A stretch of DNA of 55,732 nucleotides from Fervidobacterium sp. (GCA_026419195.1 JANZZV010000012.1:1-55732); one strand, 5' to 3'; counted from the stretch's first letter, positions 10,897 to 22,176 are shown. Notes: generated by a model from the sequence alone, not told the origin. A program made the numbers and translations.

Positions 10897-11547
10897 TTAT
10901 CGCAACTTAGAACCTTTCCGTCTTGCGACTAACTCTGATATTATTTCATGCCACCCGACTTCCTTTTCTGACAATAAGACCGTTAAATGGTAAATTAAAT
11001 CTGCCAATTCGGACACAAGGTGTCTTTTATCATTTCCCATAGCAGCTAAAACGACTTCAATGCTTTCTTCCCCAAATTTCTTGGCTATTTTCTCTATTCC
11101 TTCGTTAAAGAGACGGGTTGTATAAGAACCTTCTGGTAGTTCCTTCTTTCGTTCATCGATTAGTTGTTTTAACTCGATTAAGAATTCCAAGTTCACAATT
11201 TCGTCGTTGTCCTCCTTACTTGAGTCGTGTAAGACTTTGAAAAAGCAAGTTCTTTTGTTTGTATGACATGCTACTTTGTCTGCCGGAAATTTTACTAAGT
11301 ACAATATTGCGTCCTCATCGCAGTCTTTCAATATTTTAACAACTTTCATAGTGTTTCCTGATTCCTCACCTTTTTTCCAAATTCTACCTTTCGAGCGTGA
11401 ATAAAAGTGTGCATAGCCAGTTTGTTTGGTCAATTCAAGTGCTTTTTGATCTGCGTATGCTAACATTAAAACTTCTTTTGTATTTATTTCCTGTACAATT
11501 ACTGGTATTAATAATTCATCATTTTGCATAATTACATCCTCCTTCAA
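10897..11547 (-). CDS. hisI: Bifunctional phosphoribosyl-AMP cyclohydrolase / phosphoribosyl-ATP pyrophosphatase
   Basis: 216 aa; cyclohydrolase motif (CHTNKRTCFF) in the N-terminal half, HisE-like C-terminal half; last gene of the his operon. Confidence 0.85.
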   Translation of the reverse strand: MKEDVIMQNDELLIPVIVQEINTKEVLMLAYADQKALELTKQTGYAHFYSRSKGRIWKKGEESGNTMKVVKILKDCDEDAILYLVKFPADKVACHTNKRTCFFKVLHDSSKEDNDEIVNLEFLIELKQLIDERKKELPEGSYTTRLFNEGIEKIAKKFGEESIEVVLAAMGNDKRHLVSELADLIYHLTVLLSEKEVGWHEIISELVARRKGSKLR

Positions 11548-11557
11548 TTTTTTGAAT

Positions 11558-12316
11558 TCAGTAGTTAATCCTAACTTTTATTCCATTATTTTGTAGAAAT
11601 TCCTTCAACTTTTGCAAATTAATCTTTTCAAAGTGCAATACAGATGCCATAAGTGCTGCGTCTGCACCTGCTGTGAGTATTTCCAATACGTGCTCCATTT
11701 TACCAGCACCACCAGATGCTATAACCGGAAGCTTTGTTAATGATTTGGCAAGACGTACTGTTTCTACATCGTAACCGTCTTGTGTACCATCTTTATCGAT
11801 GCTTGTGATAAGTAATTCACCTGCACCACGTTTTTCTACTTCGACGAGATAATCTTCGTACCTTATACCCGTTCTCTTGCGTCCAGATACTGTGAATACT
11901 TCATAACCAATGTCGGTTTTTTTCACATCCACAGCTACAACAACAGCTTGTAACCCAAAACGATCTGCGATCTGTGTTATCAACTTTGGATTTTCAACGG
12001 CTGCAGTGTTTATACTCACTTTATCGGCACCTTTGTATATCAGCTCAGAAGCGAGTTCCAAGGAGTTTATACCACCACCTACTGTAAAAGGTATATTTAT
12101 TTGCTCAGCTACTTTCTCAACAAGCTGGATCAAGGTTTTCCTTTTCTCATACGTGGCGCTTATGTCAAGGAATACTAATTCGTCGATGCCTATCTGTGCA
12201 TATCTTTTTGCAAGTTCTACAGGATCACCACCGTAAATTAAATTCTCAAATTGTTTACCTTTAACAACTACGTTATCTTTAACATCGAGGCAAGCTATGA
12301 GTCTCTTAGTCAGCAT
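11558..12316 (-). CDS. hisF: Imidazole glycerol phosphate synthase, cyclase subunit
   Basis: [14 protein letters not shown]... (beta/alpha)8 HisF signature, [12 protein letters not shown]. Confidence 0.9.
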
Positions 12317-13046
12317 AAAGGCTCATCTCCCTTAGTGTTATTCTTCCTTCATAGTACGCCCTACCAATTATTAGGCCTGTTACGTTGCTGTATTCTTTGC
12401 AGTAAGACTTGACATTCTCTAAGTCATAAACAGAACTTATCCCACCTGCTACAATGATTTTTAATTTAGTTTGATTTGCTAAGTTCTTTGTAATTTTTAG
12501 ATCTCTTCCTTTCAGTGTTCCATCAGCTTCTACGTCTGTGTGAATTAATTGTTCTATACCAAGTGCTTCAAGTTTTGTAAGTAATTTTTCAAAAGTTATT
12601 TTTTTACTAATCTTCCAGCCGTTTGTTTTTATGTTACCCTCGGAGTCAGTATCCAGCGAAAAGATCACTTCTATTCCATTTTCAATGAGCTTACTTACAA
12701 TCTCTTCGTTTTTAAGTACCAAACTTGTCAACACCTGCCTTTTGAAACCAAGATTGTAGAGCTTAATTGAATATTCAAATGTTCGGATACCTCCGCCAAG
12801 TTGTATGAATTGTGAAAGACCACAGCGTGATATTTCAGTGATTATTTCATAATTCTTATCACTACCATCTATGGCTTTTGACAAGTCGACAATATGAACT
12901 AAATTCAGTCCGTTCTCCAAGAAACGTTCGATTTTTCTCAATATTTTCTCTTTTCCTGTTTCATAGACTATAGCTTGTTCTTTTTTTCCATTTATCATAC
13001 GTACGATGTTACCATTGTATATATCTATAGCCGGTATGACTAACAT
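12306..13046 (-). CDS. hisA: ProFAR isomerase
   Basis: [16 protein letters not shown] start, typical of HisA; overlaps hisF by 11 nt. Confidence 0.85.
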
Positions 13047-13657
13047 TTTATCACCTCACTAAGTAGTGATAGACCATCTGTATGACTTTTTTCTGGGTGA
13101 AACTGTATTCCAACTATGTTTTTATACTTAATGATTGCTGGGATTTTCTCTCCATCGTACTCGGTTTCTGCTATGGTTAATTCTTTGTCACAGACTACTT
13201 TGTAACTGTGGACGAAGTAAAAATAATGGTTGTTAAACTTCGAGATTCCACAATTTGTTTCTTGCAAAAATGTAATTTGGTTCCAACCAATGTGCGGTAA
13301 AATTTTTGATTTTAGTTTGATGACATTTCCCTTTATCAACTTAAGTCCTTCGGATTCTCTGTCAGTGCTGTTAAATTTTACCTCTTCACTTTTTTCAAAT
13401 AGAAGTTGCATTCCAAGACAGATACCCAAAAGTTTTCCTCCACTTTCAACGTGAATTTTTATATACTCATCGAAGTTTAGTCTCTTGAGAGATTCCATAG
13501 CATCTTGGAAGTGACCAACACCAGGAAGAATTAATACTTCGTAGAATTTCTTTGTGCTTTGTTGTATAATTTCAACCGACTCGATACCTACTTTCAGCAG
13601 AGCCCTATAAACATTCATAACATTACCAGGGACGATGCCTACAAGCCCGACTTTCAC
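13040..13657 (-). CDS. hisH: Imidazole glycerol phosphate synthase, glutaminase subunit
   Basis: Class-I GATase (GICLGMQ, HPE). The tracker start at 13717 would overlap hisB by 64 nt. A GTG at 13657-13655 overlaps the hisB TGA (GTGA) and is preceded by AGGGGG (13664-13659), giving the canonical VKVGLVGIVPGN N-terminus. Confidence 0.8.
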   Translation of the reverse strand: MKVGLVGIVPGNVMNVYRALLKVGIESVEIIQQSTKKFYEVLILPGVGHFQDAMESLKRLNFDEYIKIHVESGGKLLGICLGMQLLFEKSEEVKFNSTDRESEGLKLIKGNVIKLKSKILPHIGWNQITFLQETNCGISKFNNHYFYFVHSYKVVCDKELTIAETEYDGEKIPAIIKYKNIVGIQFHPEKSHTDGLSLLSEVIKC

Positions 13658-14256
13658 ATAATTACCCCCTTCGTTGAGAGCGTTGTATTCGAAGGTTTTA
13701 ACGCCATGTTTAAGCATAAACCGAATGATTTAAAAACACATTCAGCAACATGATGGTTGTTCTTTCCATTCAGTTTTCTTATGTGAAGCGTTGTAGCGGA
13801 ACTATTCACAAATGCTTTAAAAAATTCCTCCAACAATTCCGTTGCAAAGTTTCCTATGTTCGATACTGTAAAATCTACGTTAAATTCCAAATACTGCCTT
13901 CCAGATAGATCAATCGCACTCATAATTAATGCATCATCCATGGGTACAATGCAATAACCAAATCTTGCAGTTAAGTTGTAATCAAACAAGTTCTTTATTG
14001 CCGTGCCAATTACTATCGCTGTGTCTTCAACTGCGTGATGTAAATCTACATGTGTATCAGCATGAAACTCAGTTATCTCGATTGACAGGCCACAATATTT
14101 TGAAAGAGTTTCCAAAAGATGATCAAAAAAGCCGATTCCTGTGCTACCTGTAAATACAGACTTTTGTGCAGTACAGGATAATCTCAAGATTATAGATGTT
14201 TCTTTAGTGGTCCTCTTAACAGTACAGCTATTCTCGAAAACATCTATCTCGACCAT
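13654..14256 (-). CDS. hisB: Imidazoleglycerol-phosphate dehydratase
   Basis: IGPD motifs (HHxxE, metal-binding repeats); its start overlaps the hisC stop. Confidence 0.9.
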   Translation of the reverse strand: MVEIDVFENSCTVKRTTKETSIILRLSCTAQKSVFTGSTGIGFFDHLLETLSKYCGLSIEITEFHADTHVDLHHAVEDTAIVIGTAIKNLFDYNLTARFGYCIVPMDDALIMSAIDLSGRQYLEFNVDFTVSNIGNFATELLEEFFKAFVNSSATTLHIRKLNGKNNHHVAECVFKSFGLCLNMALKPSNTTLSTKGVIM

Positions 14257-15299
14257 TACGATCCCCCCTTGTTTGATTTGATTGTTCTTATTAGAATGTC
14301 TTTTACTAAATCGTTTTCTTGTGATTTCCCGATGGAAATTCTGACTCCTTCCTTGAATTTTCTTACGGTGACTTTCTGGTTTTTTAATTTTTCGAAGATC
14401 ATCTCTATTTGACTGTTATTTGCTAAGATAAATATAAAATTTGCTACCGAGTCAGTTAAATGAAAGCCATTTTCTAAAAACGTCTTTTTCATTCTCTCGC
14501 GTTCTTGATTTATCCATGTTATCTTTTCTTTAAAATATCCTAAGTTTTCGAGCGAAGCTAAAGCTAAAAGCTGCGACAGGTAAGAAACGTTGTAAGGTAA
14601 TCTGATTGAATTGTAGTAATCAATCAGTTCCTCATTTGCCAAAATATAGCCAATACGTTGAGCGGCTAAGCAGAAAGCTTTTGAGAAGGTGCGTATGATT
14701 ATCAAATTTTTAAATTTGTCCAACAACTCTACACACGAGTCACCTGCAAACTCGTAATATGCCTCATCAACAACTATTATTGCTCCAGTTGATAGAAGAT
14801 ACTCGATTTCACTTTTATCAAACAAATGTCCAGTCGGGTTATTTGGATTCGGTAAGAACAAAACACTTTTATGGTCTAACTTCTTTGTAAGCTCATCAAT
14901 GTCCAGCTTGTCGTACTTTTCACCCAACAGAGGTACAGTGGACAGATTCACTCCCGTTGCACAAGCAAATATAGAATAACAGCTGTAAGTAGGTGGACAG
15001 ATATAAAAGCTGAAAGTTTTGAACATGAGAAATATGTAGTAGATAATTTCATCTGCTCCATTTCCTATACTTATTCTTTCCTTAGGTTGAGATGTGTATT
15101 GCGATAAAGCTTGCAATAGCTTTTCGCACGGGGAATCATAGTAAATTTTGAGTGCACTAAGGTCAAGCTTTTTATACGCGTAGTCTAAAATCTCTTTAGG
15201 GAAATCGAACGGATTCTCGTTCAGGGCAAGATATATCTCTGTACGTTTCTCTGGCTGATACTTTGGTAGCATTTTGATTTTCATTCTGGCTGATTCCAT
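14256..15299 (-). CDS. hisC: Histidinol-phosphate aminotransferase
   Basis: Class-II aminotransferase fold; PLP lysine context (TFSKAF). Confidence 0.85.
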   Translation of the reverse strand: MESARMKIKMLPKYQPEKRTEIYLALNENPFDFPKEILDYAYKKLDLSALKIYYDSPCEKLLQALSQYTSQPKERISIGNGADEIIYYIFLMFKTFSFYICPPTYSCYSIFACATGVNLSTVPLLGEKYDKLDIDELTKKLDHKSVLFLPNPNNPTGHLFDKSEIEYLLSTGAIIVVDEAYYEFAGDSCVELLDKFKNLIIIRTFSKAFCLAAQRIGYILANEELIDYYNSIRLPYNVSYLSQLLALASLENLGYFKEKITWINQERERMKKTFLENGFHLTDSVANFIFILANNSQIEMIFEKLKNQKVTVRKFKEGVRISIGKSQENDLVKDILIRTIKSNKGGS

Positions 15300-16588
15300 A
15301 TTCCCAACTCCTCAAGTCGAATTTGGACAGCCATAGCATGAGCTTCAAATCCTTCAAGTCTTGCAAGCTTGACGTACTCACTTCCAGTTTTCAAAATTTC
15401 TTCGCTACTTACTTGTGTTATAAATATTTTTTTGAGAAAATCATTCACAGTTAAGCCAGAAGTAAATCGTGCAGTTGAGAATGTTGGTAACACATGGTTT
15501 GGTCCTATGCCATAATCTCCTATCGGCTCACTTGAAAAGTTACCCAAAAATACTGAGCCTGCGTTTTTGATAAGTTTTAATAATTGATATGGTTCTTGGG
15601 TGACTATTTCAAGATGTTCCGGGGCAATATTGTTAGATATTTCTACAGCCTGGAGAAGATTTTCAACAAGAATTATGTAACCATTTGTTTCCAGAGATTT
15701 TATTGCCCGTTCTTTGTTTGGATTGTTTAGTTTTTGAATATAGTACTGAATATTTTCCTGAACCGATGTTGCCAACTTCTCAGAAGTGGTGACAAGCACG
15801 CACATAGCATCTTCATCGTGTTCAGCCTGAGATAACATATCACAAGCTATGAAACGTGGATTTGCTGTCTCATCGGAAATGATTAGTACCTCACTTGGAC
15901 CGGCTATACTATCGATTCCGCAATCTTGGATTATTAGTTTTTTGGCTAAAGCAACGTATTTGTTCCCAGGACCAACGATCTTGTCAACCTTATAAACTGT
16001 TTTTGTTCCATACGCGAGTGCTGCAATCGCATGTGCTCCTCCCATCTTGTAGATTTCGCTTATCCCTATTCTTTTAGCTATGTAAGTTATAAACTTTGGT
16101 ATCTTACCCCTTTCATCAGGTGGTGTTGCTATCACTATACGATTAACACCAGCAATTTTGGCAGGAACCGCACACATCAATAGGGTAGAGAAGTAGACTC
16201 CTTTCCCAGATGGTACGTATATTCCGATACTGTCAATTGGTACGTTCATATACCCTAAGAATGAACCATTTTCGGTAAGTTGCCATTTGTTTTTTTCTAT
16301 TTGCAAAATATGGTATCTTTCTAACCTTGATATGAAGTTATCGACTATGCTCTCAAATTCAGGTTCAACTGTAACTTCTTCAATTTCAGTATCTGAAACT
16401 CTCAGCATGTCTAAGGTCAACTTGCATTTTTCGTATCTGTTAATATACTCAATCAACGCATCATCACCATTTGTTTGTATATTTTTTATTACAGATTTGA
16501 CGAATTCTTCAATATCTGAAACGTTTCTTCTTCTGCTTTCAATAATTTGAAAGATCTGGCTTGGTGAAGGAAACCTTATCACGTTCAT
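15281..16588 (-). CDS. hisD: Histidinol dehydrogenase
   Basis: 435 aa; HisD signature region (IAGPSEVLII, QAEHD). Confidence 0.9.
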   Translation of the reverse strand: MNVIRFPSPSQIFQIIESRRRNVSDIEEFVKSVIKNIQTNGDDALIEYINRYEKCKLTLDMLRVSDTEIEEVTVEPEFESIVDNFISRLERYHILQIEKNKWQLTENGSFLGYMNVPIDSIGIYVPSGKGVYFSTLLMCAVPAKIAGVNRIVIATPPDERGKIPKFITYIAKRIGISEIYKMGGAHAIAALAYGTKTVYKVDKIVGPGNKYVALAKKLIIQDCGIDSIAGPSEVLIISDETANPRFIACDMLSQAEHDEDAMCVLVTTSEKLATSVQENIQYYIQKLNNPNKERAIKSLETNGYIILVENLLQAVEISNNIAPEHLEIVTQEPYQLLKLIKNAGSVFLGNFSSEPIGDYGIGPNHVLPTFSTARFTSGLTVNDFLKKIFITQVSSEEILKTGSEYVKLARLEGFEAHAMAVQIRLEELGIWNQPE

Positions 16589-16610
16589 ATCACAACCTCC
16601 TTTGTCTTTA

Positions 16611-17234
16611 TCAACTGACTTGATTATTCAAACCATTCCAAAGCCTGTCAAAAAGTGCTTGCAAGTCAATGCGTTTTGTTCTATAAGCAACATCATTTAC
16701 GCAAACCATCGCGGATATTCTGTAAATTTGTTCTATTATCACTAATCCATGTTCTCTTAATGTCTTACCGGTTTGAACTATATCGATAATTGCGTCCGCA
16801 AGTCCAACAACAGGTGCAAGCTCCACAGAACCGTTCAATTTTATAAGCTCAGCATCAACATTTCTTGATTCAAGATATTTCTTAGCGCTCACCGGAAATT
16901 TAGAAGCGATTTTAACACGTCGACCGTTGAATCTGAAACCTTGAAAACTTGCAAGAACCATGCTACACAAACCAAAAGGTAATTTCATTGGTTGAATCAG
17001 AGCCAACTGTGATTCAACTATCGAATCAGTGCCACAAATCCCAACATCAGCTATTCCCCAATGTACGTATATCGGTACATCAAGTGGTTTTACAGAGAGC
17101 AATTCGATTCTCTCATCGCAATCTCTTAAAACCAGTTTTCGTTCCAACTTTTCTTCAAACTTGTACCCACATTTTTCAAGGTATGCGATACTTTCGTTTT
17201 CAAGTCTTCCTTTAGCCAAAGCTATTCTGAGCAC
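16611..17234 (-). CDS. hisG: ATP phosphoribosyltransferase, short form
   Basis: The tracker's 241-aa ORF has 34 extra N-terminal residues. A GTG at 17234-17232 preceded by GGAGGTGG (17244-17237) gives the canonical MLRIALAKGRL start and a 207-aa HisG-S, which needs HisZ. Confidence 0.85.
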   Translation of the reverse strand: MLRIALAKGRLENESIAYLEKCGYKFEEKLERKLVLRDCDERIELLSVKPLDVPIYVHWGIADVGICGTDSIVESQLALIQPMKLPFGLCSMVLASFQGFRFNGRRVKIASKFPVSAKKYLESRNVDAELIKLNGSVELAPVVGLADAIIDIVQTGKTLREHGLVIIEQIYRISAMVCVNDVAYRTKRIDLQALFDRLWNGLNNQVS

Positions 17235-17253
17235 ATTACCACCTCCGATAGAT

Positions 17254-18093
17254 TTAGTATCGAATTTCTGAAAGAAAGATCGTTCCACCCACACCATGCA
17301 AGAATTCATTAACTTTATATTCACCGCCAGCTGCAACTAGTTTAGAACTTTTAGTATCAAAGAGTGCGAACGTTAATCCACAATATTCTTCTGTTGTTCT
17401 GGCGAGTGAAAAGTCAACCTCAACAACTACGTTCTCAAACCCCTCTAAACTTCTTATTACCGTTTCCAATTCTTTTCTGTAAGGTTCTTTAATGGGAAAA
17501 TCTTGCCAATCTTCAAGTCTACGTTTTGAAAAGCTGTTTTTAACTACTTCAACAAGTTTTGATACGTCTATTTTTCTCACACTACCAAGTACTTCGAGCT
17601 CTGAGAAGTCTTTTTTATCAAGCATCTCCAATATTTCAGTCTTTATGTCTTCAGAAACATCTTTGATGAGATCTTCTAGCACTCTCGCATCGCTGAGTTC
17701 CAAGATAAGGTCTGAATTTGAATATTCTGTATATGTACCTACTATGATCTTGATACACTCTAATAGCTCATAAATCCCACCAGGGATAATCTCAAGTCCA
17801 ATTTCATACCGAGATTTCAAATTTCCAAAATTATCAAAAAAGTAAACATGTCCGTCATACCAGAATCTATGTGGCTGTCTTTGATTTTCAACATTTTCAA
17901 GTGCTTTGACGTGCTCACAAATAAACTTTGTAAAATCCTTCCTCAATTTAAAAATCTCACCAGATTTCACCATGAATGTTACACCTGACACTAATTCTTT
18001 TAAATCTTTTACTCGTTTAATATCCGGCTGTGTAAACTTTTCAAAATTTTCGCTTACCCGTTTGTAAAATGCTCGAAAAATAGTATCGATCAT
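17254..18093 (-). CDS. hisZ: ATP phosphoribosyltransferase regulatory subunit (HisRS paralogue)
   Basis: HisRS-like catalytic core without an anticodon-binding domain, directly upstream of short-form hisG. ATG 18093 is 8 nt from GGAGG (18107-18103); the tracker's GTG 18102 abuts the SD. Confidence 0.75.
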   Translation of the reverse strand: MIDTIFRAFYKRVSENFEKFTQPDIKRVKDLKELVSGVTFMVKSGEIFKLRKDFTKFICEHVKALENVENQRQPHRFWYDGHVYFFDNFGNLKSRYEIGLEIIPGGIYELLECIKIIVGTYTEYSNSDLILELSDARVLEDLIKDVSEDIKTEILEMLDKKDFSELEVLGSVRKIDVSKLVEVVKNSFSKRRLEDWQDFPIKEPYRKELETVIRSLEGFENVVVEVDFSLARTTEEYCGLTFALFDTKSSKLVAAGGEYKVNEFLHGVGGTIFLSEIRY

Positions 18094-18111
18094 ATTTTTC
18101 ACCTCCGGACA

Positions 18112-18150
18112 ATTTAAAAATAAAAGGGGCTCATCGTATCGATGAGCCCC
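18112..18150 (-). terminator. Intrinsic terminator of the his leader (attenuator terminator)
   Basis: Minus strand: GGGGCTCATCG-ata-CGATGAGCCCC (18150-18126) followed by TTTTATTTTT (18125-18112); it ends 5 nt before the hisZ SD. Confidence 0.7.
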
Positions 18151-18175
18151 TTGTGTTTACTCCACCATTAAACCA

Positions 18176-18277
18176 TCAAAAAAGCCCAGGTGGAGTAACA
18201 CCCGGGGCATTTTGATGGTGATGCAGATTTATTATTGAATTATTTTGTAAATCAATTTGTGCACAAAGGCAATCCAT
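18176..18277 (-). CDS. his operon leader peptide (33 aa, MDCLCAQIDLQNNSIINLHHHQNAPGVTPPGLF)
   Basis: ATG 18277 preceded by AGAGGTG (18289-18283); three consecutive His codons CAT-CAC-CAT at 18223-18215; TGA at 18178-18176. It lies between the promoter and the terminator hairpin. Confidence 0.55.
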   Translation of the reverse strand: MDCLCAQIDLQNNSIINLHHHQNAPGVTPPGLF

Positions 18278-18304
18278 ATTTACACCTCTAAGCATTTTTT
18301 AAAT

Positions 18305-18332
18305 ATTGTATCATAATTTCAACTTTTTGCAA
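18305..18332 (-). promoter_or_regulatory. sigma70-type promoter of the his leader/operon
   Basis: Minus strand: TTGCAA(18332-18327)-16 nt-TACAAT(18310-18305). Confidence 0.5.
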
Positions 18333-18348
18333 CATACAGAATCATGAA

Positions 18349-18615
18349 TTAAATAATGAACTTTCGGACCGAAGTATTTAGTTTTTCGGCTATCATTGCT
18401 AAATTTTGAGCTGATGTATTGACATGTTTAGCGTTTGTACTCTGCTCTTTAAAATCTTTACTTATTTTTTCGATTGAATTAGCTATGACCATAATTGAAT
18501 TGGTTGCGTTAGCCATGGCAGAACTCATTTGTTCGGTTGCTGCACTCTGTTCTTGGGCACTTGAGGCTAAACTTTCTATCATTGAACTAATGCTTTCAAC
18601 TTCTTTAAGTATTTT
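18349..18615 (-). pseudogene. Detached 3' end (C-terminal ~90 aa) of a methyl-accepting chemotaxis protein gene
   Basis: The frame is open from 18705. ...ILKEVESISSMIESLASSAQEQSAATEQMSS...LNTSVRKFII matches the conserved MCP C-terminal coiled coil that is missing from the truncated MCP at 24488-26245. There is no SD or start of its own. Confidence 0.7.
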
Positions 18616-18627
18616 GTAAAGTATTCT

Positions 18628-19074
18628 TTGACAACAATATCTTCTAATAATCCACTTGTTATTGATTTTGTTCTGCGAATTACGGAGTCGGTTGTTAAAA
18701 AAAGATTAAAGAAGAATCTGTGTTCGGCAGGTGTGGAAGATTTTGCTGTTGATGTAGAAGGAAACATATACCCTTGTTTTGTCTTTATAGGACGGTCAGA
18801 AGATTTAATTATGGGAAATGTAAATGATAATATTGAAGAAAAAACTCAGAATTTTAGGCAAAAGATACTTGAATTTAAAGAAATTACATATGAGAGAATT
18901 AATTCTTGTGCAAATTGTATAGCAAAAGGAATTTGTTCCCAATGCATAGCAGCAAGTTATTTAAAGTTTAAGAATTTCGATTGTGTTGATAATAATTTAT
19001 GTTCTATCAATAAGAAAATAATTGAAAGGATAGGGTTGTTCCTAGTGGACAACTATCTGGTGAATAAAATTTAG
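18628..19074 (+). pseudogene. Detached C-terminal SPASM-domain portion of a radical-SAM/SPASM peptide-maturase gene
   Basis: Cys pattern CSAG...YPC...CANCIAKGICSQC...CVDNNLC is typical of SPASM auxiliary clusters. There is no SD; the tracker 'start' is a TTG. It is the missing continuation of the rSAM fragment at 23633-24538. Confidence 0.65.
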
Positions 19075-19130
19075 AACTTATAAGGAAAAAAGTTTTTTAT
19101 CTTTTCTTGGTGTCAGGGGAGGGCTAATAA

Positions 19131-20321
19131 TTGGTTTCTGACAATTTTAAACCCATTGCTTATCCAGATATTGAGAAGTATGAGTTGTTTAAAAAGAAAG
19201 GCAATATAATGTATTGTATTGGAACCATTGAAAATGACTCGTTTATAATTGTTCCAAATGAGCAGGTGAGTCTTATCTTAAGACTTTTGAAGTTAATGAA
19301 TGGAAAATTAAGTGTCAGTGATATTCAAAAATTTGCTAAAGAGAATAATATGTCAATAGATATAAAAAGTTTAATAACTAAACTTGGAAGGGCAGGTTTA
19401 ATAAAAAATTTCAATGAACATTACAAATTCAGTGAACTACAACTTTTTTCGTTTAGTATGCTTTCGATAGACATTTCTTTGTTTTGTAATTATATTAAAA
19501 AAAGAGGCATGTTTCTAACTATTATTTTAATTTTAATGTTAATTGTTACAATTCTATACGTTACAATATTTTTACCATCGAGAATAAGTTTTAATTTCAA
19601 TAATATTATTAAATATGACAATTCCTACTTGAAAAATATAATTTTAAGTTTAATATTTACAATACCATGCTTTTTAGTACATGAACTTGGGCATATTATT
19701 TTTGCCACGAGATATGGTCTGACTTCTAATAAATTAAATATAGGGTTATATTATTTCGTAATCCCTATAGTTTATGTAAAGATTCAAGGTTTATATGCTC
19801 TTCCTCCTTTCAAAAGAGTGAGAGTATTAATAGCTGGAATTGTGTTTAACTTTATTTTTGGCTTGAGTTGTCTATTTATGTGGTATATTTTTGAGATAGA
19901 AATATTTAAAACTTTGTTTTTTGTAAATATTCAAATAGCATTCCTAAATTTAACACCTTTCACATTTAGCGATGGATACTTTATATTTTCTATAGTCATT
20001 GGAGAACCAAATTTGCGATATCAGTACTACAAATTTTTGGCTGGAATAGTTAATAAAAAATTTCGTTACAAACTAACATTTAAGCAATTGATATATATTA
20101 TTTGTAGTATTGTGATAACTATACTTTACATTATTGTTCAAGTTAAAGTACTTGACAATGTTTTATATGAAACTTTACAGAAATATGGATTTGGATTTAG
20201 CCAAGAAAGGAGATTTTTTATTTACACTGCAATGAATATACTTATTGTTTCTGCTTTATATCTATTCATTTACAAAAGAAGCATTAAGTATTTAAATGCA
20301 ACTTTGGCTAAAGATTTTTAG
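19131..20321 (+). CDS. Polytopic membrane metalloprotease of the site-2-protease (M50)-like type, with a ~100-aa N-terminal soluble domain
   Basis: TTG start with GGGGAGGG SD at 7 nt. HELGH within a TM helix plus a downstream NLTPFTFSDGYF segment (S2P LDG-like motif); many hydrophobic helices. Confidence 0.55.
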   Translation: MVSDNFKPIAYPDIEKYELFKKKGNIMYCIGTIENDSFIIVPNEQVSLILRLLKLMNGKLSVSDIQKFAKENNMSIDIKSLITKLGRAGLIKNFNEHYKFSELQLFSFSMLSIDISLFCNYIKKRGMFLTIILILMLIVTILYVTIFLPSRISFNFNNIIKYDNSYLKNIILSLIFTIPCFLVHELGHIIFATRYGLTSNKLNIGLYYFVIPIVYVKIQGLYALPPFKRVRVLIAGIVFNFIFGLSCLFMWYIFEIEIFKTLFFVNIQIAFLNLTPFTFSDGYFIFSIVIGEPNLRYQYYKFLAGIVNKKFRYKLTFKQLIYIICSIVITILYIIVQVKVLDNVLYETLQKYGFGFSQERRFFIYTAMNILIVSALYLFIYKRSIKYLNATLAKDF

Positions 20322-20361
20322 ATGATTGAATAAAAAGTATTTCTAACTTTTAAACTTGTAA

Positions 20362-20436
20362 ATGTCCGATTTATGTATCAACTGTAACTTTAAATGTGGG
20401 AATTTAAGTACATCGTGCAGCATACAACAATTCTAG
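20362..20436 (+). other. 24-codon Cys-rich small ORF (MSDLCINCNFKCGNLSTSCSIQQF), speculative RiPP precursor
   Basis: Four Cys in 24 aa, 40 nt downstream of the protease gene. No SD, so it is weak. Confidence 0.12.
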
Positions 20437-20596
20437 AAATAAATGAAATATATAAATCGGTGGTATAAAAGCAAAGAAATTAGATTGATTTCATTAATAG
20501 TATACTTTCACAGAAAAGTAATTTAATATATTAGAATAAATCCTGTTTTTAAACAACAAATAATTTTCTAAAAGTTATCTGTGTTTTTTTATTTTT

Positions 20597-20697
20597 CTTG
20601 ACTTTATCAGTTCAGAGGTATTTATAGACTAACAAAAAATAACAATCTCTGGACTTTGTCAGTTAGGAGGGGTTTTTGAGCTAACAAAAAATTACGG
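20597..20697. repeat. Two tandem ~50-bp degenerate copies of the IS left-terminal sequence
   Basis: Unit 1 is 20597-20646 and unit 2 is 20647-20697; each contains GACTTT(a/g)TCAGTT..GAGG...CTAACAAAAAAT. A third copy is the IS left inverted repeat itself. Unit 1 carries a promoter-like TTGACT-17-TTTATA. Confidence 0.45.
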
Positions 20698-22176
20698 CTC
20701 TTTGTCAAGAGATGGGGTGGGTATTCTGAATGCCCACCTTTTCAGTTTTATCAACCAAACATTTAATGTAATATATACCTCTTACAGGTAAATAATTTTA
20801 AAAACCCAATATTGTCTTTCCCCGCTACTTTTGCGGGTTTTAAATATTCTCTTTCTAACTCCTAACTACCACAACTGTATAAAATCCTCTTTCTAAATCT
20901 CTCAAAATTTCTATATCCAAATGCATTTCTCTTTAAAACTTTTATCTTGTTGTTAAAACCTTCTGTTGCACTATTTGTATACGGAACATCAAAAGAATTT
21001 ACTATCTCTGAAAACCAGTTCCTAAAAACCTTTATACATCTGCAAAATTCAGAAAGGCCACTTCTCTCTGCTGCCTCTATCCACTTTTTTAATTCAACTC
21101 TCGCTTCTGCTGAATTACTGCTTTCCAAAACTTTTCTAAATTCTTCCTTGAGTCTATGCGCTTTCCTTAAATCCTCACTATACCAAAACATCACTTCTAA
21201 CTCTTCTCTCTGCTCTGCTGTAAGTTCTTCATAAGACTTTAACAACAATTTCCTGCTCCTCTTGAAATATTTTCTCAAATTATCTTCTAATTCTTTCTGC
21301 ACTCTTTTCCTTACTCCTTCTGTCGCCCAATAAACATACCTTGTAAAATGAAATTTGTCTATCACTATCTTCGCATTTTTAAAATATATCTTTGCTATCT
21401 CCACAAATTGTCTCCACATATCACATATGAAATACTTTACTTTATCCCTTCCTTTTAACCCTTTAAAATATTCAATCAAAACATCTTGTCTTCTGTCTTT
21501 TAAAATTTCTACTATCTGCTTTTTCACAGGGTCCACAATTATACACTGATATTTAGCTCCACCTGCATTTCCTTTGAATTCATCTATGCATATCGCCTCA
21601 GAAGAAAAATCCTCTATTTTCTTGGTAGGACTTACCTTATCAAATAACCTCATAACTGTTGTAACTGATACATTTGTCTGTCTTGCTACCTCTTTCATAC
21701 TGCTCAAACTACTAAGCTGACTTATAATGTATGCTGCTAGTCTATTTGTCATTCTTTGACGCTTGCCCAAAAAATTTATGTGTTCAAAAAACTTCTTTCC
21801 ACATTTTTTGCAAACATATCTTCGCTTTCTTAAAACTAAATATGTTTCCTTACCCATTATTGGTACGTCCTTTACTCTTTGGACACGATAATCATGTATC
21901 TTGCTTGTGATACTACCACATTTAGGACACTCGTGAGGTTTTTGCATCTGACTTATGTGGAGTTCTACTTCCTTTTCGTTTTCTACTACTTGGTGGAGAA
22001 TGATATCTTTTGATTTCAAAAGTTCAGTGATATAATTATGATTGAGCACTTATTCTGGATGCCTCCTTTCTTTTGTGTGTTTTTTTATCCCTAAAAACAA
22101 TTTTAATTATAGCAGGCATTCAGAATAAGTGCTATATTTTTTCTTTTCTTACCACCCCAATATTTATTATAGAGCC
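20696..22176 (-). mobile_element. ISL3-family insertion sequence (1481 bp)
   Basis: IRL GGCTCTttgtcaagagaTGGGGTGGgTATTCTGAATGCC (20696-20734). IRR (reverse complement from 22176) GGCTCTataataaatatTGGGGTGG...TATTCTGAATGCC. GCAT(C/T)CAGAATAAGTGCT is repeated at the right end. No target-site duplication is visible (aaaattac vs gattttgc). Confidence 0.65.
20862..22049 (-). CDS. ISL3-family transposase
   Basis: 395 aa; N-terminal zinc-ribbon (CPKCGS...CKKCGKKF) and DDE transposase core typical of the IS204/IS1001/IS1165 group. GTG start with AAGGAGG upstream. Confidence 0.8.

Follow-up and report, generated by a model that had tools for sequence, protein, structure and literature searches.

We analysed a 55,732-nt stretch of DNA from Fervidobacterium sp. 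(GCA_026419195.1 JANZZV010000012.1:1-55732; hereafter, the window) and focused on the leader of its histidine biosynthesis (his) operon, which is encoded on the minus strand; all coordinates are positions in the window. The leader carries a promoter, a short open reading frame (ORF) with three consecutive His codons, mutually exclusive RNA helices and an intrinsic terminator, and a complete his operon adjoins it without an intervening promoter. Comparison with related leaders supports the reading put forward in an initial annotation of the locus, and we consider it likely that the leader attenuates transcription of the hisZGDCBHAF(IE) operon in a ribosome-mediated (leader-peptide) manner. The features are as follows.

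18305-18332, minus strand: promoter, with the -35 box TTGCAA (18332-18327), a 16-nt spacer and the -10 box TACAAT (18310-18305).
18283-18288, minus strand: Shine-Dalgarno (SD) sequence GAGGUG of the leader ORF, 5 nt 5' of its ATG.
18176-18277, minus strand: leader ORF of 33 codons plus stop, encoding MDCLCAQIDLQNNSIINLHHHQNAPGVTPPGLF (ATG at 18277, UGA at 18178-18176).
18215-18223, minus strand: putative regulatory His codons CAU CAC CAU, codons 19-21 of the leader ORF.
18210-18223, minus strand: 5' strand of helix P1 (the candidate anti-antiterminator), CAUCACCAUCAAAA, which holds the His codons, from minimum-energy folds.
18163-18181, minus strand: 3' strand of P1, UUUUGAUGGU (18181-18172, with the UGA stop) plus GGUG (18166-18163), from minimum-energy folds.
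18185-18206, minus strand: inner hairpin P2, CCCGGGUG-UUACUC-CACCUGGG, 8 bp, nested within P1.
18189-18208, minus strand: 5' strand of the candidate antiterminator, GCCCCGGGUGUUACUCCACC, from explicit energies and covariation.
18146-18166, minus strand: 3' strand of the candidate antiterminator, GGUGGAGUAAACACAAGGGGC, whose final 5 nt double as the beginning of the terminator 5' arm.
18116-18152, minus strand: intrinsic terminator, (AA)GGGGCUCAUCG-AUA-CGAUGAGCCCC(UU), plus the U-run UUUUAUUUUU (18125-18116).
10897-18106, minus strand: downstream operon hisZ, hisG, hisD, hisC, hisB, hisH, hisA, hisF and hisIE, from Pfam and HisZ/HisG homologues; the hisZ SD GGAGGTG is at 18106-18100, the hisZ ATG is at 18093, and the coding genes run from 18093 to 10897.

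The TTGCAA-16-TACAAT promoter, the SD sequence and the 33-codon ORF with CAU CAC CAU at codons 19-21 were all present as first annotated. The -10 box is in addition extended by a TG at 18313-18312 (TGaTACAAT, 18313-18305), and in other lineages the leader is likewise preceded by a TTGCAA/TTGACA-17-TGnTAnnAT promoter. The motif TTAGAGGTGTA is kept in all Fervidobacterium-type leaders, and SD-like motifs are equally spaced in the other lineages. A second in-frame ATG (18295-18293, minus strand), 18 nt 5' of the SD-led start, would lengthen the ORF to 39 codons (MLRGVNMDCLC...); it is probably unused, because it lies a few nt from the predicted transcription start and is missing in relatives.

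The window leader had a minimum folding energy of -67.3 kcal/mol, compared with -41.6 +/- 4.2 kcal/mol in shuffled sequences (n=200; z = -6.1; 0/200 as good). The initial annotation had paired CCAUCAAAA, over the third His codon, with UUUUGAUGG at the stop. This pairing exists, and the helix is longer than described: P1 comprises 14 bp in the minimum-energy fold (CAUC+ACCAUCAAAA with UUUUGAUGGU+GGUG), which places all three His codons and the stop codon inside it. P2, nested within this pairing, had been overlooked. The second proposed pairing, an 18-bp helix between 18208-18189 and 18166-18146, was recovered as three blocks of 5, 5 and 8 bp separated by a 2x2 internal loop and one bulged A. 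Its 5' strand uses the 5' arm, the loop and half of the 3' arm of P2, and its last 5 bp (GCCCC:GGGGC) occupy the base of the terminator 5' arm, GGGGC being common to both structures. P2 is followed by C+UUUUUU and was flagged as terminator-like in the terminator scan. This U-run is accounted for by its pairing with CAAAA in P1, and none follows P2 in Pseudothermotoga and Thermotoga leaders; P2 and its U-run could cause pausing or weak termination that would keep RNA polymerase in step with the ribosome.

The terminator is strong, with a GC-rich stem of 11 bp (13 with AA/TT; in DNA, GGGGCTCATCG-ATA-CGATGAGCCCC at 18150-18126, then TTTTATTTTT at 18125-18116), and it starts 25 nt after the leader stop, as described earlier. 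Its distance to the hisZ SD had been given as 5 nt; the gap from the end of the U-run is 9 nt, which leaves no room for a promoter between the terminator and hisZ. This bears on the idea that the terminator is a constitutive insulator against upstream transcription, with hisZ expressed from elsewhere and the alternative pairings coincidental. Such an insulator would agree with the strength of the terminator, which forms nearly always at equilibrium in the window sequence, but it would not account for the 9-nt gap, the conserved promoter upstream of the leader or the covariation of the antiterminator (below). The genes upstream also vary by lineage and are often on the opposite strand, and we regard this explanation as extremely improbable.

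To compare the leader across the phylum, we used a sample of 11 distinct hisZ-upstream leaders from four Thermotogota groups. These were the Fervidobacterium group (F. thailandense and close metagenomic relatives, L001 and L004-L008; HisZ 71%), a Pseudothermotoga-type group of three contigs (L009, L010/L011 and L012; HisG 55-60%), four lineages of metagenome-assembled genomes from AT-rich Thermotogaceae (L013/14, L015, L016 and L018/19) and the Thermotoga maritima group (L020-L023, with 92% HisZ identity to the 1USY chain). Searches with HisZ gave few loci (2 from genome contigs and 1 from metagenomes) because HisZ diverges quickly, and the useful leader diversity came via HisG homologues and the T. 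maritima HisZ crystal-structure sequence 1USY.

In all leaders recovered, an extended -10 promoter preceded the element, which lay ~70 nt upstream of hisZ. An SD sequence and an ORF of 29-36 codons with 3-4 in-frame His codons were found in 11/11 leaders, that is, in every fetched hisZ-led Thermotogota operon; the initial annotation had made its proposal depend on such an ORF not being absent from relatives. Ten leaders have three His codons and the Thermotoga group has four (MKIQNEIMKMFFDEHHHHCYGPAVSPPGV before the stop). Within contiguous His runs, the codons varied solely synonymously (CAU/CAC). In L018 the middle His is lost (HYH) and a new one lies three codons on (HYHRYH), so the count stays at three. 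The His codons are also retained in L013 and L016, though there they lie outside any strong helix, and pairing alone therefore cannot explain them.

The N-terminal 13-18 codons of the leader ORFs are unrelated between lineages, yet the frame is open behind the SD in each. When the N-terminal segments were shuffled, the frame stayed open in 12-50% of shuffles per lineage; the product over nine lineages is ~2e-6, a figure that over-estimates the independence of the lineages and is still small. These ORFs could also be read as encoding a functional micropeptide, the hairpins being its leaky terminator that allows his co-transcription. The open frame is indeed conserved, several assemblies (L004, L009, L011, L012 and L013) list it as a gene, and the C-terminal half of the peptide (..HHH..P.G..PPG..) is alike across lineages. 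However, its N-terminal residues are unrelated, and those C-terminal residues that are conserved map precisely onto the P1 and P2 arms, where synonymous sites are conserved too, pointing to a constraint on the RNA and not on the peptide. A micropeptide would also leave the covarying antiterminator that overlaps the terminator unexplained, and we consider it very unlikely. The near-identical contigs L018 and L019 differ at the leader start (~1985-1990), which is ATG in L018 and ACG in L019, with an in-frame TTG four codons on.

A Pro-Pro-Gly (PPG) motif was observed in the leader peptides of 9/11 lineages (besides the window, L001, L004, L009, L011, L012, L015, L016 and L021), where CCA CCN GGN is the P2 3' arm read in frame (window 18185-18193). 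PPG is a strong EF-P-dependent stalling motif. Judging from its position, a ribosome pause at this site would sit on the antiterminator 5' strand, and the motif could just as well have arisen as a side effect of the hairpin sequence.

The RNA elements were shared as well. All leaders have an invariant CCCGG/CCGGG inner hairpin core, a GC-rich terminator with a U-run, and a helix that links the 5' arm and loop of the inner hairpin to the segment abutting the terminator. Around these we distinguished two layouts. In the first (Fervidobacterium, Pseudothermotoga-type and Thermotoga), the UGA lies inside the complement of the His codons, that is, in P1. In the second (AT-rich Thermotogaceae), P1 is not clear and the stop codon lies in a separate local hairpin, which varies compensatorily (UUUUGCU/AGCAAAA, GGUUUUGCC/GGUGAAACC, GUUUCACC/GGUGAAAC and AUUCGCU/AGCGAAU). 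P2 was essentially invariant across lineages. The differences in P1 come from direct comparison, as indels and a one-codon shift put P1 and P2 out of register in the MAFFT alignment. P1 pairs CACCAUCA-AAA with UUU-UGAUGGUG in Fervidobacterium, CACCAUCA-CGU with ACG-UGAUGGUG in the Pseudothermotoga type and CCACCAUCAC with GUGAUGGUGG in Thermotoga; the latter two types pair CACCAUCACG(UG) with (CA)CGUGAUGGUG, and the replacement of AAA/UUU by CGU/ACG is compensatory.

Covariation of the antiterminator and the terminator was examined in a 10-sequence MAFFT alignment (A2), using as control the partner strand slid along the alignment. For the antiterminator, 85% of cells form standard pairs (28-54% when slid), and four pairs are changed on both sides; three of these (columns 29-99, 35-93 and 36-92) have a distinct Watson-Crick pair in each of three groups. 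For the terminator, 94.5% of cells are paired (37-59% when slid) and three pairs are changed on both sides. The compensatory changes in relatives that the initial annotation had proposed to look for were seen in both helices. A covariance model (R1) built from the eight non-Fervidobacterium leaders, and hence without sequences of the window's own genus, matched the window at 18118-18232 (minus strand; 60 bits, E 2e-14). Elsewhere in the 55.7 kb, R1 matched only the reverse-strand read of the palindromic terminator, and in each related locus it gave a single hit, in every case upstream of hisZ. The core 22-mer (P2) was single-copy in the window even allowing 3 mismatches, and neither the 22-mer search nor R1 revealed a second copy or regulon member in the 55.7-kb window.

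Two further contigs, L002 and L003, from a relative with 48% HisZ identity, both stop at the same base (position 1) inside the leader hairpin (CTCCACC...), probably through an assembly break at the inverted repeat. As they end within the leader, they were unusable for P1 or the antiterminator; the remainder (the P1 3' strand and the terminator) is conserved, with an R1 match of 30.5 bits.

A scan of 17800-18700 against Rfam 15 (both strands, E <= 10) listed 12 matches, none of them to a T-box, to His_leader or to a riboswitch. These matches were chance-level hits to unrelated small RNAs and microRNAs, and identity with a known RNA family was rejected. The scan is one of several observations that bear on a different operator for the same switch, namely a trans-acting factor (an RNA-binding protein, a non-canonical T-box-like contact with uncharged tRNA-His, or a small ligand), with the ORF incidental. 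The region from the His codons to the terminator is near-identical in nucleotides among Fervidobacterium with HisZ 48-71% identical, beyond what the helices need, and a GGUGG beside the stop codon is faintly T-box-like. Against such a factor, the region 5' of the His codons offers no Stem I equivalent and is unconserved in sequence, yet an SD and an open frame are present in all lineages, and the His codons are kept, with only synonymous variation in contiguous runs, even where no strong helix includes them. The discriminator of bacterial tRNA-His is C73, and no UGGG able to pair with the 3' end of such a tRNA was seen in the motif when read by eye. The short overlap between antiterminator and terminator resembles protein-operated systems (0-5 nt in TRAP systems; PMC3064811). 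Overall, we consider a trans-acting factor unlikely.

Under ribosome-mediated attenuation, translation and stalling would select the fold, with histidine as the signal. Transcription would start ~7 nt past the extended -10 box, and the leader RNA would bear the translated 33-codon ORF. When histidine is plentiful, either no ribosome is present or the ribosome would have run through to the stop, and the His codons would pair with the UGA segment to form P1 with P2 enclosed; the 11-bp terminator could then form, and transcription would end at the U-run (~18125-18116), before hisZ. When charged tRNA-His is short, a ribosome would stall with the first or second His codon in the A-site, covering the P1 5' strand and freeing the segment that begins 15 nt downstream of the first His codon. 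This segment, which comprises P2's 5' arm and loop and some of its 3' arm, would pair with 18166-18146 as the 18-bp antiterminator, tying up five nt at the base of the terminator 5' arm and letting RNA polymerase enter hisZ.

The spacing of the His codons and the antiterminator is compatible with a ribosome footprint. The distance from the first His nucleotide to the antiterminator 5' strand is 15 nt in the Fervidobacterium and Pseudothermotoga types and 17-20 nt elsewhere. We scanned ribosome positions in silico with a 28-nt mask, or with solely the RNA 3' of the ribosome. The terminator-base probability was lowered only when the A-site was between ~3 codons before the first His codon and the second His codon, and access to the antiterminator 5' strand dropped between the second and third His codons in the A-site in 8/10 lineages. 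Masking lowered the terminator-base probability strongly in L009, L011 and L012 (to ~0.2 or below), weakly in the window (to 0.7-0.8) and not at all in L013. With a ribosome at the UGA, the P2 3' arm is covered, and so, in most leaders of the first layout, is the start of the antiterminator 3' strand, which lies 4 nt past the U of UGA. This distance is 12 nt in the window owing to an insertion or duplication of 7-8 nt at 18163-18175 (minus strand), which reads GAUGG-UUUAAUGG-UGGAG, compared with GAUGGUGGAG in F. thailandense and relatives.

Explicit energies for the window helices, in kcal/mol at 37 °C and 70 °C, respectively, were -27.2 and -11.9 for P1+P2, -32.5 and -14.1 for the antiterminator, -20.6 and -9.9 for the terminator, -47.8 and -21.7 for P1+P2+terminator, and -39.3 and -16.1 for the partial antiterminator + terminator. 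Thermotogota hosts grow at ~65-80 °C. In a transcript without the terminator 3' arm, the antiterminator was the preferred fold whenever its 5' strand was free.

Several observations speak against attenuation by a stalled ribosome or limit its support. Once the full terminator is included, terminator-containing folds win, the partial antiterminator + terminator outdoing the full antiterminator by ~7 kcal/mol at 37 °C and ~2 at 70 °C; the full-length window leader keeps its terminator at equilibrium, and a stalled-ribosome mask lowers the probability of the terminator base only to ~0.7-0.8. Because the terminator folds win at equilibrium, antitermination would have to be a kinetic trap, as in other attenuators, and a kinetic choice of fold must be assumed in this model. 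The antiterminator/terminator overlap is also only 5 nt in the window, where the terminator is strong, and 2-3 nt in the AT-rich Thermotogaceae, where the modelled switch is weak, or absent (L013). Enterobacterial leader-peptide attenuators have overlaps of 6-11 nt, mostly 9 or more (PMC3064811), and the window falls below this range. Finally, the covariation amounts to few events, as the ten aligned leaders form about three independent groups (four counting Thermotoga).

The short overlap has a precedent in the trp leader of Bacillus subtilis, whose antiterminator and terminator are mutually exclusive with 3 shared nt (PMC3064811). In contrast to the window leader, however, the trp leader is operated by a protein (TRAP) via (G/U)AG repeats, with a weak terminator and no leader peptide. 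No (G/U)AG repeats were visible in the window leader by eye, a formal search not having been made.

Among known systems, enterobacterial hisL (RF00514) is alike in having, close to the promoter, a short ORF that contains a His-codon run, followed by a mutually exclusive set of an anti-antiterminator with the regulatory codons, an antiterminator and a terminator just 5' of the first his gene; the inferred logic, in which a stalled ribosome leads to readthrough, would also be the same. It differs in several respects. There is no sequence or covariance-model similarity (no RF00514 among the matches listed at E <= 10), and the first gene in Thermotogota is hisZ rather than hisG. Thermotogota leaders have three His codons (four in Thermotoga), whereas hisL has 7 consecutive His codons. 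In the window, the strand that pairs with the His codons includes the UGA, and P1 encloses the extra hairpin P2.

His attenuators have also been predicted, solely from comparative genomics, for the Bacillus cereus group, Peptostreptococcaceae (C. difficile among them) and Erysipelotrichales (PMC9413887, PMC2965389, PMC4833913). Compared by their published architecture, these Firmicutes leaders share 3-5 consecutive His codons, hisZ-led operons and terminator and antiterminator hairpins with the window leader, and they belong to another phylum. The initial annotation had regarded three His codons as a minimal version; since the Firmicutes predictions carry 3-5 (PMC9413887), three has a precedent. 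Histidine T-box leaders (Lactococcus, Corynebacterium and others) also choose between terminator and antiterminator on his operons and respond to tRNA-His charging, but they are untranslated and bind uncharged tRNA via Stem I and a T-box bulge, whereas the window leader has a conserved ORF and no T-box match.

No Thermotogota his leader was found in PMC9413887, PMC2965389, PMC4833913 or the T. maritima transcriptome paper PMC3636130. A full-text literature search likewise found no published his regulation for Thermotogota, although an earlier T. maritima prediction may exist. Candidate attenuators in 'Thermotogales' are reportedly mentioned in the abstract by Vitreschak et al. 2004 (FEMS Microbiol Lett 234:357). 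More tentatively, the leaders may constitute an undescribed phylum-wide Thermotogota his-leader family, absent from Rfam 15 and spanning Thermotoga, Pseudothermotoga, Fervidobacterium and other Thermotogaceae. Its design may be a compact one, with the stop codon embedded in the complement of the His codons (CACCAUCA with UGAUGGUG). If this family reading is true, 3-4 regulatory codons and a 2-5-nt terminator overlap would suffice for attenuation.

As far as can be judged from sequence, this would be a textbook mechanism in a conserved Thermotogota-wide family absent from Rfam, and the conceptual gain is modest. The comparison offers a concrete, testable mechanism for regulating histidine biosynthesis in Thermotogota, the model organism T. 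maritima included. Leader-peptide attenuation would gain a well-supported case beyond Proteobacteria, Firmicutes and Actinobacteria, and among thermophiles, at whose temperatures RNA structure stability and transcription-translation coupling are less certain. If true, ribosome-RNA polymerase coupling and kinetic RNA switching would work at 65-80 °C in Thermotogota, and the two layouts (His codons paired with the stop region, or the stop in its own hairpin) would record attenuator remodelling. An Rfam family could be seeded from the 11 leaders with the alignment and the covariance model, to the benefit of annotation; at present, gene callers pick up the small leader ORF inconsistently, labelling it a hypothetical protein.

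The gene upstream of the leader varies by lineage (trpA, a chemoreceptor-like tail or divergently transcribed genes), indicating that the element travels with the his operon and not with the preceding gene. In F. thailandense (L001, 1-2598), unlike the window, the his leader and operon lie directly 3' of trp genes (PRAI, trpB and trpA), and the leader is again preceded by a promoter of its own. In the window, the region 5' of the leader (18349-22049) looks rearranged. It holds a 77-aa ORF (18349-18582, minus strand) whose end resembles the C-terminal tail of the leader-upstream gene in L006 and L008, a SPASM-domain fragment (18628-19074, plus strand), an M50-like peptidase (19131-20321, plus strand) and an ISL3-family transposase (20862-22049, minus strand). 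Within the operon, the hisG ORF as mechanically listed (16611-17336, minus strand; 241 aa) has a TTG start within hisZ; its true start is probably near 17225-17234, because homologues are 204-211 aa long.

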